From the NCBI GenBank assembly GCA_964506225.1, contig CAZDKH010000012.1, positions 1-51,351 of the forward strand: a stretch of 51,351 nucleotides of DNA. Reading direction: 5' to 3'. A program made the translations under genes and the position numbers. Under the pieces are notes generated by a model that worked only from the letters and a program-made list of their open reading frames with translations, did not search any database and was not told where the DNA came from. Positions 10,798 to 17,482 of the stretch are shown here, one piece after another (within the stretch, counting starts at the first letter, position 1; every line of letters starts with the position of its first letter). This DNA comes from an uncultured Gammaproteobacteria bacterium (lineage in GTDB: Bacteria; Patescibacteriota; Microgenomatia; UBA8517).

Positions 10798-12258
10798 ATG
10801 GCAGGGGAAACTCTTGAGAAAATACGTGCTGATAGAATTAAAAAACTTGAGGAACTTCGCAAAAGGGGTATAAATCCTTATCCTTCAAAGCTTATTCAGA
10901 AAAATCAAAAAATTTCTGATATTCGTAAAAAAAGGGGCGATAATGTGACAGCGGCTGGAAGAATATGGGGTTGGCGAGAACATGGGGGAAGTATCTTTGC
11001 GGATTTAAAAGATGAAAGCGGTAAAATTCAAATCTTTTTCCAAAAGAAAAATTTAGCCAAAAGCTTTGAAAACCTGAAATTTTTGGATATTGGTGATTTT
11101 ATTTTGGTTTCTGGTAAGTGTTTTAAGACAGCCGCCGGAGAGTTGACTATTGATGTTGTTGAATTCCAGCTTTTAAGCAAAGCTCTACGCCCTCTTCCTT
11201 CTTCTTGGTATGGACTTCGTGATATTGAAGAGCGTTATAGGAAGCGTTACTTGGATTTACTAATAAATCCCGAAGCGAGAGGGGTTTTTGAAACCCGCAG
11301 AGATATAGTAAAGCTTCTCAGAAAATATCTTGATGATCACGGATTTTTGGAAGTGACTACCCCGGCACTTCAACCAATTTATGGAGGAGCAACAGCAAAG
11401 CCTTTTGTAACCCACCATAATGCCTTGAATATAGATCTTTACCTAAGGATTGCTGACGAGCTTTATCTAAAAAGGCTGATTGTGGGAGGATTTGAGAAAG
11501 TTTATGAGATAGCGGTTGATTTTCGCAATGAAGGAATTGACCGTTGGCACAACCCCGAGTTTGAGATGCTTGAGTTTTACTGGGCATATGCAAATTATCA
11601 GGATCTTATGGAAATGACCGAAGAAATGCTTTCTGAGATTGTTAAAAAAATTAAAGGTAGTTTCGAGGTTGAGTATAAAGGGAGAAAAGTAAGCTTTAAA
11701 CCTCCATGGAAACGTATTACTTTTAGAGATGCTATCCGTGCCGAAACCGGGCTAGATATTAACCAAATTACCTCTTTTGAGGCTCTTAACTCAGAGGCGA
11801 AAAAGAAAGATCTTAGTTTTGAAACAAAAGATGTTAGGGATTTAGCAACCGGTTTTGATGCACTTTACAAAACTTATGTCAGGCCAAATATTTTAGATGC
11901 GACTTTTATTATCGATAATCCTTACATAATGCGTCCCTTGGCAAAAAGAAAAGAAGAAGATCCAACTAAGGTTGAAAGTATTCAGTTGGTTGCGTCTGGT
12001 ATAGAGCTTGTCAACGCCTATACAGAACTTAACGACCCGGCTGATCAGCGGGAGCGCTGGCAGGAAGAAATGAAAAGAGCTAAAAAAGGTGCTGCCGAGT
12101 ATCAGGTTATAGATGAAGATTATATTGAGGCTTTGGAATATGGTATGCCCCCGACTGCGGGTTGGGGGATGGGTATTGAACGCTTGACAGTTATTCTAAC
12201 CAACCAGCAGACAGTTAAAGATACTATTCTTTTCCCGACCCTAAGACCGTCCGGCTAG
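10798..12258 (+). CDS. lysS: Lysyl-tRNA synthetase, class II
   Basis: YGGATAKPF, FRNEG, HNPEF, YGMPPTAGWGMGIER. Confidence 0.98.
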   Translation: MAGETLEKIRADRIKKLEELRKRGINPYPSKLIQKNQKISDIRKKRGDNVTAAGRIWGWREHGGSIFADLKDESGKIQIFFQKKNLAKSFENLKFLDIGDFILVSGKCFKTAAGELTIDVVEFQLLSKALRPLPSSWYGLRDIEERYRKRYLDLLINPEARGVFETRRDIVKLLRKYLDDHGFLEVTTPALQPIYGGATAKPFVTHHNALNIDLYLRIADELYLKRLIVGGFEKVYEIAVDFRNEGIDRWHNPEFEMLEFYWAYANYQDLMEMTEEMLSEIVKKIKGSFEVEYKGRKVSFKPPWKRITFRDAIRAETGLDINQITSFEALNSEAKKKDLSFETKDVRDLATGFDALYKTYVRPNILDATFIIDNPYIMRPLAKRKEEDPTKVESIQLVASGIELVNAYTELNDPADQRERWQEEMKRAKKGAAEYQVIDEDYIEALEYGMPPTAGWGMGIERLTVILTNQQTVKDTILFPTLRPSG

Positions 12259-13421: not shown

Positions 13422-13985
13422 ATGACTCGCGAGGAAGCTCTTGCCCTTCTTGATAAACATTTAAAAACCTCAAATCTAAAAAGGCATTGTTTTGCGGTTG
13501 AGGCTGTTATGAGAGCGTTAGCCAGAAGATTTGACAAAGATGAAGAAAAGTGGGGACTGGTTGGCCTTTTGCATGACGGGGATTATGAAGAAACAAGAGA
13601 CACTCCTGAGTTTCACACAATAAAAATGGTTGAATGGTTGAAAAAAGAGGGTGTTACCGACAAAGAGGTCATTGGGGCTATCTTATCACACAATTTTGCC
13701 CACACGGGCCAAAACCCTCCAAAAAATCTTTTGGAGTGGTCTTTGTATTGCTGTGATGAATTGACAGGATTTATAGTTGCCTGTGCTCTTGTCAGGCCCG
13801 ATGCTTCTTTGGCTTCGGTTAATATAGAGTTTATGGAGAAAAAATGGAAAGAGAAATCTTTTGCCGCGGGGGTTAACAGACAACAAATTCAGGAGTGTGA
13901 GGGAAGACTTAAAATTCCACTTCGTGAGTTTATGCAAATTGCACTTTCTGCGATGCAGGGGATTTCCCAAGATTTGGGTTTGTGA
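13422..13985 (+). CDS. HDIG-domain metal-dependent hydrolase
   Basis: H...GLLHDGDYE, SH, DELTGFIVA, FAAGVNR. Confidence 0.9.
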   Translation: MTREEALALLDKHLKTSNLKRHCFAVEAVMRALARRFDKDEEKWGLVGLLHDGDYEETRDTPEFHTIKMVEWLKKEGVTDKEVIGAILSHNFAHTGQNPPKNLLEWSLYCCDELTGFIVACALVRPDASLASVNIEFMEKKWKEKSFAAGVNRQQIQECEGRLKIPLREFMQIALSAMQGISQDLGL

Positions 13986-13997
13986 TAAAATTGTCCA

Positions 13998-14137
13998 AAA
14001 GCGTTATTAGACAGAATCCAACTGTCGAGCTTCCCGAGGTAGCAATCGGGACGGGTTAGCCCGTAACAGCTTGAAATTAAGAATCAGTTGAGCTGGCACC
14101 TCCGAGATCTTCTTGGGCGCAACTTCACAAGAACTAA
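13998..14137 (+). promoter_or_regulatory. T-box riboswitch with ultrashort stem I and Ser (UCC) specifier
   Basis: GACAG-AAUCCAA-CUGUC stem I; stem IIA/B ACGGGUUAGCCCGUAACAGC; UGGCACC bulge at 14094-14100; extended -10 TGaTAAAAT at 13983-13991. Confidence 0.85.
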
Positions 14138-14782
14138 ATGGCAAAAATAATAATTATTCGCCACGCAGAATCAATAGCTAATACCTTGGGAATTTATCAG
14201 GGCCAGACTTATGACACTGGTTTATCTGACCTTGGCAAAAAGCAAGCTCAGGCCTTAGCTAAGAGACTTGCAAAAGAAAAAATTAACCGCATTCTTGCAA
14301 GCCCACTTAAAAGATCTCTTGAGACTGCATATGAGGTTGCAAGTGTAGTTGGTGTAAGTGTGAAGATAGAAAGAAAGCTAATTGAAACAAATCACGGTAA
14401 ATGGGAAGGAAAAGACAAAAGGTGGATACAAGCTAACTATCCGAATATTTTGACGACCTGGAAAGAAAGACCCCTGGAAGCTTTTTTCCCCGGAGGAGAG
14501 AAATTCATTCAAACGGTAGACAGGGTTGGCAAGTTTTTGGCAAGATCCCATTGGCAAGGTAACACATTAGTTATGACCCACGATAACATTGTGCGAATAA
14601 TAGTTTGTTTGGCCCAAGATCTTGATATTAACAAAATGTGGGAATTTGATCTTGAGCCGTCAGCGATCAATACCTTCAAAATAGAAGATATTAATGGTAC
14701 GAAAAAGATTAAGATAGTTAAACTTAATGAAACTTCCCATCTAAAAAATTTGCGTGCCAATTTGAGTTCCCACGCGTTATAA
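14138..14782 (+). CDS. Histidine phosphatase, probable metal-independent phosphoserine phosphatase (PspA/iPSP type)
   Basis: RHAES, YQG, SPLKR, ETNHG, TH, LNETSHL; lies between a Ser T-box and serS. Confidence 0.8.
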   Translation: MAKIIIIRHAESIANTLGIYQGQTYDTGLSDLGKKQAQALAKRLAKEKINRILASPLKRSLETAYEVASVVGVSVKIERKLIETNHGKWEGKDKRWIQANYPNILTTWKERPLEAFFPGGEKFIQTVDRVGKFLARSHWQGNTLVMTHDNIVRIIVCLAQDLDINKMWEFDLEPSAINTFKIEDINGTKKIKIVKLNETSHLKNLRANLSSHAL

Positions 14783-14789
14783 TAGAAAA

Positions 14790-16037
14790 ATGTTAGACAT
14801 TCAGTTTATTAGGGATAATCCTAAGGAGGTTAAAAAGGGTGTTGCCGCCAAGCAGTTTGACCCTAAATTAGTTGATAAGGTTTTGGAGCTTGATAAAAAG
14901 AGGCGTGACCTGGTTGCCAAAGTTGATGAGTTAAGAAGCCAAAGAAACAGACTAGCCCGAGAAAAAAGGATTAACGAGGGGAAACAAGTCAAAGAGAAAC
15001 TCCAAGGTATTGAGCCTCAGTTGGAGGAGGTCGAAAAAGAGTTTTTAGATATTTTGAATCAGATTCCTAACTTACCACTACCTCAAGTTCCAGTTGGTAA
15101 AAATGAAAAAGAAAATGTAGAAGTAAGGCGTTGGGGAACTCCGCGGGATTTTGGCAAAGATGGTTTTGAGCCTAAGGATCATTTGGAATTAGGGCAAAGT
15201 TTGGGGATTTTGGATTTTGAGACAGGGGCAAAGGTAGCCGGTTCGCAGTTTTATTATTTATATGGGGATGGAGCGCTTTTGGAGTTGGCGCTTGTGCAGT
15301 ATGCTTTTGAAGTTTTGCAGAAAGAAGGCTTTGAGCCTGTGATTACTCCTGATTTGGCAAAATCGCGATACTATCTGGGGACCGGCTATGCTCCTCGCGG
15401 AAAGGAAGCACAAACGTATGTTATTGAAGGCGAGGATTTGGGGCTTATTGCCACTGCCGAGGTAACTCTGGCCGGGAGACACGCCGATGAAATAATTCCC
15501 GAGGAGAAACTGCCCATAAAGTATATAGGTTATTCGCATTGTTTTAGACAGGAGGCCGGAGCTTATGGCAAATACTCAAAAGGGCTTTACAGGGTTCATC
15601 AATTTACAAAGGCCGAGATGTTTATCTTTTGCAAGCCAGAGGAGTCCGAAGCAATGCACGAGCATATATTGCAAATGGAGGAAAAAATTTATCAAAACTT
15701 GGGGCTTCCTTACCGAGTAGTTGAGATGTGCACGGCAGATTTAGGGGCAATGGCGGCCAGGAAATTTGATATTGAAGCATGGATGCCCAGCCGCAATGAT
15801 TATGGAGAGGTTACTTCGACCTCAAACTGTACTGATTATCAGGCAAGAAATTTGAATGTTAAACTCAAAAGAAAAAATGGCAAGACCGAGTATTTGCACA
15901 TGCTAAACGGCACAGCAATTGCAACTTCTAGAACTCCTCTTGCAATTTTGGAGAATTACCAGCAAAAAGATGGGACAATTATTATCCCCGATGTTTTGAG
16001 AAAGTGGATAGGGAAGGAGAAAATCACAAGGGGCTAG
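14790..16037 (+). CDS. serS: Seryl-tRNA synthetase
   Basis: MLDIQFIR, LIATAE, FRQEAG, RVHQF, SNCTDYQAR, LNGTA. Confidence 0.98.
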   Translation: MLDIQFIRDNPKEVKKGVAAKQFDPKLVDKVLELDKKRRDLVAKVDELRSQRNRLAREKRINEGKQVKEKLQGIEPQLEEVEKEFLDILNQIPNLPLPQVPVGKNEKENVEVRRWGTPRDFGKDGFEPKDHLELGQSLGILDFETGAKVAGSQFYYLYGDGALLELALVQYAFEVLQKEGFEPVITPDLAKSRYYLGTGYAPRGKEAQTYVIEGEDLGLIATAEVTLAGRHADEIIPEEKLPIKYIGYSHCFRQEAGAYGKYSKGLYRVHQFTKAEMFIFCKPEESEAMHEHILQMEEKIYQNLGLPYRVVEMCTADLGAMAARKFDIEAWMPSRNDYGEVTSTSNCTDYQARNLNVKLKRKNGKTEYLHMLNGTAIATSRTPLAILENYQQKDGTIIIPDVLRKWIGKEKITRG

Positions 16038-16294: not shown

Positions 16295-17482
16295 TCAAGG
16301 TTTATAGTACTTTTTGTTCTTAATCTTTTCAGGTAACAAGCTTTCCTTTGTATAAGGCTCATAACCTTTTCCGTACCCTAAATCCTTCATGAGTTTTGTG
16401 GGTGCATTGCGGATTTGCAGGGGTATGGGGAGGTTTCCATACTTTTTAACATCCTCCAAAGCTCTCATATAGGCTTCATATGCGCTTCTGTCTTTTTTGG
16501 CTGTTGCCAGATATACGGTTCCTGCAGCCAAGTTTTCCTGACATTCTGGTAGCCCAACTTGCTGGCATGCTTGAAAGACTGCATTTGCTACAACTAAGGC
16601 TGTAGGGGAAGCAACATCTTCACTAGCAAACACCACCATCCTGCGAGCTATATACAGGGGATCTTGGCCTGCCTCGACCATGCGTGCTAGGTAATAAAGT
16701 GCTGCATCGACATTTGATGCACGCATTGATTTGATGAAAGCAGATATAATGTTGTAGTGTTCTTCGCCATGTTTGTCGAAGGTTAGCTGACGTCTTTGCA
16801 GAGCTTCTTCAATATCTCTTGTATTTAGTATTTTGTGTTTAGGATTTAGATTTTTGGCTATTTCTAAGACATTAAGAGCCACCCTAGCATCACCATTTGA
16901 GGATTCTATTAGGAACTTTTGAGCGTTTTTATCAAGGTTGATTTTTAATTCGCCAAGACCTTTTTTAATTATTTCCTTTAAGTCTTTTTCCGAAAGTTGA
17001 TTAAGTATCAAGACCCTGCAACGGCTCATTAAAGGCCCAATGACTTCAAATGAAGGGTTTTCAGTCGTGGCACCGATTAAAATTATTTCTCCGCGCTCAA
17101 CATGGGGCAAAAGTTTATCTTGCTGGGCTTTATTAAAACGATGAATCTCGTCTAAAAAAATAATAGGCACTAGGGAATAGGTGTTAGGCAATAGTTCTTT
17201 TTGGGATGTTTGTCTTATCACATTTTCGATATCTTTGGTTTTGGTGTTTACGGCTGAGAATTCGTAAAATTCTCTTTTTAGGTTATTTGCAATTATTTTT
17301 GCCAAGGTGGTCTTACCGCAACCAGGAGGACCCCAAAAAATAAGAGACGGAAAGAAGGAGGATTTTTGAGCGTTTTTAAGAAGTTTACTAATAATTCCAT
17401 TTTTACCTACAAGATGTTCCTGTCCCACAAACTCCCCAAGATTTTTTGGTCTAATTTTTTCAGGCAAGGGCACTTTATCCAT
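16295..17482 (-). CDS. rarA: Replication-associated recombination protein A (MgsA)
   Basis: [43 protein letters not shown]. Confidence 0.97.

Follow-up and report, generated by a model that had tools for sequence, protein, structure and literature searches.

A probable serine-specific T-box riboswitch of extremely reduced build heads a pspA-like–serS operon in a patescibacterium

T-boxes are textbook RNAs that sense which tRNA they meet and whether it is charged. In contig CAZDKH010000012.1 (C12; all 51,351 nt of it were analyzed and are called the window below), positions 13998-14123 very probably form such an RNA, namely the leader of a pspA-like–serS operon with the build of an extremely reduced, serine-specific T-box riboswitch. 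On the sequences of this element and its homologs, we establish its homology and structure, a specifier and discriminator that fit the downstream gene, and the presence of cognate tRNAs in relatives. The genome that holds the window is 597 kb in 15 contigs, 85% complete, with ~38% G+C. Because relatives of the gene downstream of the element occur in metagenome-assembled genomes titled Candidatus Woesebacteria, Gottesmanbacteria, Collierbacteria, Amesbacteria, Microgenomates or Patescibacteria, the host is taken to be a Microgenomates-type bacterium of the Candidate Phyla Radiation (CPR; Patescibacteria) with a very small and reduced genome.

Detection of the element and its homologs

A first-pass annotation of this DNA had read the region as a minimal serine T-box in a host outside Actinobacteria; the host is indeed a patescibacterium, and all the parts of the element that it listed are present in the sequence. 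Comparison of the region with 60 relatives by BLASTN recovered seven clear homologs with the same parts and, by eye, compensatory changes. MAFFT alignments of these first homologs misplaced stems I and II and were left unused for structure; a covariance model was seeded with the window copy and one homolog under a hand-written structure and iterated from R1 to R2, the latter correcting two loci (L039 and L051) in which R1 had taken stem III for the antiterminator. R2 finds one copy in the window's own genome. Across the order it marks 49 places in 41 of 139 genomes, all within the window's family (by family, 40/124 genomes as against 0/11 and 0/3 in the other two); an even sample of the class yields 41/151 genomes, and a sample of the phylum 15/151, 11 of them among the 143 genomes of other classes.

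A leave-one-out model (R3), built from 54 matches in other genomes with the window copy excluded, was run over both strands of the window and recovers 13998-14123 at 109.5 bits (E-value 1.2e-24, from a shortened calibration), with the next matches at 9.3 and 7.8 bits and no second T-box-like element in the window. On this comparative evidence, which decides the matter, the element lies far beyond chance.

Anatomy of the window copy

In its 126 nt the window copy presents the minimal form of every part of the family architecture (Table 1). A 3-bp base helix leads through a kink-turn (K-turn)-like internal loop (5' strand GUUAUUA, 3' strand GA at 14027-14028) to a 5-bp stem I, whose 7-nt terminal loop holds the specifier; a 6-bp stem II and the IIA hairpin follow, the F-box-like sequence of the latter being CCGUAA. 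A IIB pseudoknot pairing was looked for by hand in this copy and none was defined; the covariance models used cannot represent pseudoknots such as IIA/B. There is no stem III, only 23 nt linking IIA to A1, and the discriminator domain, an antiterminator-type fold, is built of helices A1 and A2 around a 7-nt bulge. The ultrashort stem I, the reduced stem II and the missing stem III of the first-pass annotation are thus all borne out.

Table 1. Features of the element, of its predicted alternative folds and of its surroundings in the window
Feature	Position	Strand	Details
T-box leader	13998..14123	+	aptamer and discriminator (antiterminator-type) domain, 126 nt; matched by R1, R2 and R3
Stem I module	14000..14031	+	base helix, K-turn-like internal loop, 5-bp stem, 7-nt loop
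Base helix below stem I	14000-14002 with 14029-14031		AGC/GCU, 3 bp
Stem I helix	14010-14014 with 14022-14026		GACAG/CUGUC, 5 bp; loop AAUCCAA
Specifier	14017..14019	+	UCC (Ser), then AA; same loop position in 33/33 serine-gene homologs
Minimal stem II	14032..14051	+	6 bp, UCCCGA 14032-14037 with UCGGGA 14046-14051; loop GGUAGCAA 14038-14045
Stem IIA hairpin	14052..14070	+	CGGG 14052-14055 with CCCG 14060-14063, loop UUAG; UAACAGC after the 14060-14063 strand; F-box-like tail CCGUAACAGC
Conserved purine-rich AAAUUAAG	14074..14081	+	between IIA/B and T-box sequence; motif or near variant in 57/96 members
Discriminator (antiterminator-type) fold	14087..14123	+	isolated fold -8.6 kcal/mol
Helix A1	14087-14093 with 14117-14123		A.G mismatch at 14091/14119
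Bulge between A1 and A2	14094-14100		UGGCACC, 7 nt; UGGC at 14094-14097
Helix A2	14102-14105 with 14113-14116		
Predicted competitor hairpin CAGCUUGA/UUGAGCUG	14067..14095	+	pair probability 0.61-0.91, unconstrained ensemble; window copy only
UUCUUG/CAAGAA hairpin	14110..14133	+	UUCUUG 14110-14115, CAAGAA 14128-14133; predicted, energies in text
Promoter-like site	13964..13991	+	TTCCCA, 16-nt spacer, TAAAAT, TGn before -10; consensus scan, 9/12 matches
Histidine-phosphatase-superfamily gene, PspA-like (putative phosphoserine phosphatase)	14138..14782	+	operon gene 1; Pfam His_Phos_1 4e-44
serS, seryl-tRNA synthetase	14790..16037	+	TIGR00414 483 bits, over cut-off; starts 7 nt after the phosphatase gene
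Upstream HD/HDIG-domain open reading frame	13422-13985		
Class II lysyl-tRNA synthetase-type neighbor gene	10798-12258	+	
MgsA/RarA-type AAA+ ATPase neighbor gene	16295-17482	-	

Covariation and architecture across the family

Pairing was counted in an alignment (A6) that includes 96 homologs. Standard pairs fill 89.7% of its cells, as against 54.1% with shuffled partners (none of 500 shuffles attains the observed figure) and 32-46% with partners slid by 1-3 columns, in an alignment that is fitted to the structure of the model and so leans towards it. Changes on both sides occur in 23 of the 24 modelled pairs, and all the pairs of stem I (96.2% paired; 5/5 changed on both sides), stem II (88.9%; 6/6) and A1 and A2 (helices 4 and 5; 83.9% and 89.1%; 9/9) covary, the IIA hairpin (helix 3) being paired in 94%. 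The base helix, which lies outside the model, is complementary in 80 of the 96 members, versus a mean of 54 and a maximum of 60 with shuffled partners.

The typical member of the family measures ~115-150 nt, has a stem I of 5-6 bp and often a 6-bp stem II with an RGUnnnAA loop, and lacks stem III. In 91 of the 96 members the loop of stem I does not exceed 10 nt, and a small distal stem I hairpin is kept in three genomes (G098, G148 and G010). The stem II domain takes up 24 nt or less in 36 members, 27 of which have an RGU...AA or UGU...AA loop; in the remaining members stem II is longer and has internal loops resembling the GAA/AGUA S-turn consensus. Between IIA and A1, 89/96 members have no more than 30 nt, too short a linker to accommodate a stem III.

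The loop GGUAGCAA of the window copy was considered as a remnant S-turn, which is unsupported as stated: its GUA-type strand lies 5', and the Rfam consensus S-turn has GAA 5' and AGUA 3', i.e., the reverse strand order. As a guess, this loop might give tandem sheared purine pairs that present adenines to the codon–anticodon helix on its minor-groove side.

Specifier, bulge and downstream gene change together

The specifier and the UGGN of the bulge were read by a simple parsing rule, which leaves the remaining members of the family unparsed or ambiguous, and the downstream genes were named with NCBIfam on representatives of sequence clusters. UCC with UGGC stands upstream of 19 PspA-like genes, 10 serS genes and one gene for a SerB-like phosphatase, with one further locus lacking an open reading frame. 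Among the 33 elements before PspA-like, serS or SerB-like genes, UCC occupies the same loop position in all and UGGC is present in 32; the rule returned UUC for three of the 33 because the next base is C. The homologs that the first-pass annotation had advised collecting for covariation (96 aligned) thus agree with it both in the covarying pairs and in the conservation of UCC and UGGC in 32/33, and its serine assignment stands.

The other clear codons are AUC upstream of 21 ileS genes (16 with UGGU and five without the bulge pattern inside the match), GUC with UGGU upstream of nine valS genes, GAC with UGGC upstream of four aspS genes, GCC with UGGU upstream of a single alaS, and AAC upstream of six AspRS genes of non-discriminating or bacterial type (three with UGGC, three with UGGU). 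Judged from these sequences, the specifier, the UGGN and the downstream gene change together over no fewer than six clear amino-acid specificities (Ser, Ile, Val, Asp, Asn and Ala). All clear codons of the family end in C, and codons ending in C are described for T-boxes as the specifier 'C rule' according to PMC7583486.

The first-pass annotation had further taken UGGC as a cue for serine, on the ground that tRNA-Ser has G73. This reasoning is upheld by the relatives: all nine tRNA-Ser genes from G010, G072 and G012 have G at position 73, and G010 and G072, each of them a carrier of a UCC/UGGC element, also have tRNA-Ser(GGA).

A few members of the family differ in the gene they precede. Asn-type (AAC) elements (L094, L103 [G063, G028], L083, L088, L091, L093, L104, L125 and L143) occur before aspartate aminotransferase and AspRS genes, and their placement on AspRS genes would fit the making of Asn-tRNA via Asp-tRNA(Asn). 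Another element, L128 (G177:C30), whose loop reads UUUGCAU (UGC, Cys) and whose bulge has UGGA, lies before a gene for a BshB/LmbE-like deacetylase and may, from its sequence, be a cysteine T-box on a gene of thiol metabolism. Five elements (L123, L124, L129, L131 and L135) precede a gene for a small (~115 aa) CsaA/Trbp111-like tRNA-binding protein; their specifiers are unclear or Pro-like, with UGGU in four and the bulge unparsed in L129. At L165 (G072:C1:53046-53176), ARAGORN calls a tRNA-Thr(UGU) of 92 nt, which is unusually long and perhaps reflects an insertion, an intron or a miscall.

Genomic context of the operon

The element occupies a 152-nt intergenic gap between the HD/HDIG-domain open reading frame and the phosphatase gene (Table 1). 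The phosphatase has PspA (NF045917) as its top NCBIfam match, at 142.6 bits and thus under the 350-bit cut-off. In 19 of 20 homologous loci serS directly follows the PspA-like gene, and the 20th is interrupted by the end of a contig. In other lineages the serine-type leader stands directly before serS or before a gene for a HAD-type SerB-like phosphatase, and serine T-boxes are known on serS and on serine-synthesis genes according to PMC8002221. The placement of these leaders supports a role of the PspA-like enzyme in serine supply, a role that the serine specifier would itself predict for this histidine phosphatase. The enzyme lies under a serine T-box, yet a source of phosphoserine was not found: the 85%-complete genome has neither a SerC-type aminotransferase above cut-off nor a 2-hydroxyacid dehydrogenase domain.

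The predicted promoter-like site ends 6 nt ahead of the conserved start of the leader at 13998. Across the family a -10-like hexamer lies 3-12 nt 5' of the element in 47 of 96 members, versus 68 of 1920 random positions, which supports the view that these T-boxes stand at the start of transcription units. A small hairpin, CCCAAGATTTGGG, with a T-rich tail is found at 13966-13978 at the end of the HD-domain gene, overlapping the -35-like hexamer of the T-box promoter.

Proposed mechanism and expression platform

By analogy with other T-boxes, and from the comparison of homologs, we infer how the tRNA would bind, which way regulation would run and at what step it would act, as follows. The anticodon of uncharged tRNA-Ser(GGA) would pair with UCC in the terminal loop of the 5-bp stem I, and the small stem II and IIA/B would buttress the codon–anticodon helix, no elbow-binding platform being present. 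With its free 3' terminus, G73-C-C-A, the tRNA would then pair with UGGC in the bulge and stabilize A1 and A2, a pairing of which a charged tRNA would be incapable.

The output of the family appears to be mixed. A hairpin of at least -6.5 kcal/mol in strength with a U-run lies between T-box and open reading frame in 53 of the 96 members, 49 of which have an ultrashort stem I, and in 42 of the 53 the 5' arm of this terminator overlaps the 3' strand of A1 by at least 3 nt, which implies mutual exclusion of the kind that a transcriptional T-box requires. In the relatives G001 and G034 the folded platform pairs the T-box ACCUCC with a GGAGGU Shine-Dalgarno (SD) sequence. The first-pass annotation had inferred a new specificity and a new host for the translational class of T-boxes; serine and Patescibacteria hold, but the element is no lone novelty, at least six specificities being spread across the class and the phylum, and given the 53 members with terminator-like hairpins the class as a whole is not 'translational'. 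GGAGG occurs before the same gene in G001, G034, G102 and G148. In G097 (L080), 126 nt separate the serine T-box from the PspA-like gene and contain a long A/U-rich hairpin with an interrupted U-run that the terminator rule did not count.

The window copy has neither type of platform. As the first-pass annotation had noted for the U-tract, neither a U-tract nor a terminator-like site is found from 13998 to the AUG at 14138, and no SD lies upstream of that start. The genome as a whole is, by motif counts, without SD usage: GGAG, GAGG or AGGA at -20..-4 occurs before 50 of 376 long open reading frames (13%), versus 16% in an internal control. For Rho (TIGR00767), the 85%-complete genome gives nothing better than two matches, of 40 and 30 bits, that fall short of the 509-bit cut-off. 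We do not think that the window copy acts via transcription termination. Since it has no terminator and no SD, and since A1 ends 14 A-rich nt before the AUG, we propose that it might act on SD-independent translation initiation or on the fate of the mRNA; that it controls at the level of initiation, in some manner, strikes us as evenly balanced between holding and failing.

The first-pass annotation had offered a more specific form of translational control, in which UUCUUG and CAAGAA form a sequestrator that would block the initiation region when the tRNA is charged or absent. The two hexamers exist and are perfectly complementary, the UUCUUG arm overlaps three nt of the 3' strand of A2 so that the hairpin and A2 would exclude each other, and a sequestrator would suit a leader with no terminator in a genome with no Rho match above cut-off. 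When 13998-14175 was folded, forcing this hairpin lowered the unpaired fraction of the start region (-12..+3) from 0.74 in the free RNA to 0.49. Its probability in the ensemble is, however, ~0.003: with a 12-nt loop it is worth -3.8 kcal/mol in isolation, and since the extended A2 hairpin outcompetes it, forcing it takes +3.7 kcal/mol. It stops 4 nt before the AUG and hence does not reach the initiation codon, and there is no SD for it to hide in a genome without SD enrichment. The nearest terminator-less analog (G022, L044) has no equivalent of it by eye. The sequence is found in two listed DNA sequencing runs, one of them perhaps its source, and no listed RNA run; the only full DNA run is labelled hot-spring metagenome, and if growth is hot, a 6-bp hairpin with four A-U pairs becomes even less plausible. 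We therefore hold this sequestrator to be rather improbable.

Folding instead predicts a competitor hairpin at 14067-14095 as the dominant structure of the free RNA (Table 1), which would take up the 5' strand of A1 and the UG of UGGC and leave A1 with a probability of 0.002. It would be possible to see the output in this hairpin, with tRNA binding remodelling the RNA and altering its stability or processing rather than the access of ribosomes; the 4.1 kcal/mol needed to force A1 is an amount that the binding of a ligand could cover. Such an output is quite improbable in our estimation, as the hairpin, a matter of prediction throughout, does not appear in the predicted fold of G022, the conserved F-box tail that contains its 5' arm is expected to be within the IIA/B pseudoknot, and no nuclease site or other readout is evident.

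A third possibility is that the aptamer is intact but the terminator of an ancestral T-box has been deleted, leaving a relic that binds tRNA without regulating, or an operon expressed constitutively. The close relatives G036, G010 and G012 have a terminator that begins at the last 3-4 nt of A1 (AAC...), and the window copy has the same AAC followed by 14 A-rich nt and the AUG. Decay would be in keeping with a very small, reduced host genome and with a predicted accessibility of the start that is almost equal between states (unpaired fraction 0.74 free, 0.81 with the antiterminator forced). On the other hand, the 109.5 bits under a model that excludes the window copy place it among the best-scoring members, which speaks for selection still acting on the aptamer as a whole and on A1/A2. 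Position 4 of A1 is G-C in the window copy and A-U in G022, a compensatory change between two copies that are both terminator-less and SD-less, and a spacing of 12-14 nt from A1 to the confirmed start recurs in L044 (G022), L114, L115 and L126, resembling design and not decay. The compensatory change and the recurring spacing imply that the discriminator domain is still selected in this terminator-less layout, and we consider a relic unlikely.

Two other searches for an output gave little. Terminator-less leaders folded free and with UGGN held unpaired show no consistent difference in the accessibility of the start site. Pairing of the A1 3' strand with codons 8-10 (4-5 bp in the window copy, G022 and L114/L126, and stronger in L115) was rejected as too weak and dependent on kinship.

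Points against the assignment

Several observations weigh against a functional serine T-box at this site. In the window copy the 5' strand of the internal loop reads UUA next to the stem, against UGA in most members, leaving its K-turn noncanonical. Both the lean of the pairing counts towards the modelled structure and the shortened calibration of the E-values count here too, as do three Asn-type members that have UGGU where UGGC is expected. ARAGORN finds no tRNA-Ser among the 23 tRNAs of the window's 85%-complete assembly, and for that reason the host's own ligand tRNA is not seen. In the platform, folding favors no terminator or sequestrator that overlaps the 3' strand of A1, and the start is nearly as accessible in the free RNA as with the antiterminator forced. 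Finally, a search with the Rfam T-box model (RF00230), one of the checks suggested in the first-pass annotation, went against it: at E<=10 on 13900-14250 (351 nt) Rfam returns two chance snoRNA-like matches and no RF00230, and at E<=1 RF00230 matches none of 20 serine-type loci, a failure that probably reflects the divergence of their T-box sequence GCUGGCACCUCC from the consensus. One chance match elsewhere, at 9.4 bits, is all that RF00230 gives in the window's own genome.

Taken with the lack of any Rfam family at gathering scores over the whole window and a minimum-free-energy z-score of only -1.81 for the leader region, this silence of RF00230 could suggest that the intergenic region holds a chance set of hairpins or another kind of RNA. 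Such a reading is contradicted by the leave-one-out match, by the covariation in every helix and by a specifier and UGGN that track the gene. It is contradicted as well by Rfam itself on sister elements, for at identical positions RF00230 finds 10 of 20 non-serine members (scores of 30.9-53.8 bits, E-values 5e-9 to 4e-3, all below the 93-bit gathering score). We regard it as exceedingly improbable.

Comparison with known T-boxes

A full-text literature search, with subscription papers and supplements outside its scope, found nothing on T-boxes in the Candidate Phyla Radiation, Patescibacteria, Microgenomates or Saccharibacteria. Going by sequence comparison, the window thus presents a reduced serine T-box in a lineage for which no description of a T-box was found, and one member of a large family with many specificities. 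According to PMC7778990, the class II model of TBDB was run only on Actinobacteria and on class-I matches with truncated stem I; both this search design and the Rfam gathering score would miss the family, and homology-based annotation accordingly overlooks a regulatory layer in CPR bacteria.

With the canonical class I T-boxes of Firmicutes (RF00230), transcriptional elements that include UCC-specifier leaders of serS and of serine-biosynthesis genes, the element shares a common core of specifier plus purine, UGGN T-box sequence and A1/A2, together with a K-turn-like GA region at the base of stem I and an F-box-like sequence. The class I model, however, has 219 positions as against ~126 nt in the window copy, which lacks both the long stem I with its elbow-binding platform and stem III. 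In the RF00230 alignment of L088, the best match, ~70 nt of distal stem I is likewise deleted, as is the whole of stem III. A genome of the same class with five short-form matches (G264) also contains a 287-nt match to RF00230 (G264:C15:9182-9468; 89.6 bits, just below gathering), and long and miniature T-boxes seem, from these matches, to coexist in it.

The translational T-boxes of actinobacterial ileS genes (M. smegmatis, M. tuberculosis, N. farcinica) likewise place the specifier in a short stem I without a distal platform and have stem II, IIA/B with an F-box (an F-box-like sequence in the window copy), C as the third codon base and a UGGN bulge between A1 and A2. The first-pass annotation had given the IIA/B sequences of the two as nearly the same; the F-box alone was compared, and it reads CCGUCA in N. 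farcinica (PMC7583486) versus CCGUAA in the window copy. The actinobacterial stem II is a ~70-nt domain with a mid-stem S-turn, whereas that of the window copy is a 6-bp hairpin with the loop GGUAGCAA; those elements are of Actinobacteria and specific for Ile, and these are of Patescibacteria, with Ser here and Ile, Val, Asp, Asn and Ala in the family, and have no stem III. The SD sequestrator of the ultrashort-stem-I translational type is present in G001 and G034 and not in the window copy, and the terminator-like hairpins in 53 of 96 members mark a further difference from the actinobacterial ileS type.

These comparisons lead us to a broader proposal, tentative and somewhat short of probable: Patescibacteria may harbor a phylum-wide class of the smallest natural T-boxes, with at least six specificities, in which more than half of the members carry intrinsic terminators and capture the tRNA co-transcriptionally without a platform, and those of SD-less genomes control initiation independently of the SD. 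If true, tRNA would be captured during transcription in the absence of the elbow-binding platform generally held necessary for transcriptional T-boxes, and a T-box ending 12-14 nt from the start codon would represent an SD-independent control of initiation undescribed for any T-box. The ~126-nt element would also offer a natural minimal scaffold for structural work and for the engineering of tRNA-responsive switches.

According to PMC7583486, transcriptional T-boxes generally need a long stem I with an elbow-binding platform, and translational ones are mostly actinobacterial, with an intermediate or ultrashort stem I and an essential stem II S-turn and IIA/B pseudoknot. The patescibacterial family would break two generalizations of this review, that of the long stem I for transcriptional T-boxes and that of short-stem-I forms as actinobacterial and translational, because it belongs to a deep-branching phylum of tiny genomes, serves many amino acids and includes 49 ultrashort-stem-I members with terminator-like hairpins. 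Among T-boxes studied in depth, those of glyQS are the smallest, and the review describes them as having also lost a whole domain, namely that of stem II, and attributes the loss to a G+C-rich codon. The codons of the present family (UCC, AUC, GUC, AAC and GAC) are, unlike that of glyQS, not all G+C-rich, and the pattern is reversed: glyQS keeps the long stem I and its platform and drops stem II, whereas the patescibacterial T-boxes dispense with the long stem I and platform, keep stem II, and drop stem III as well.

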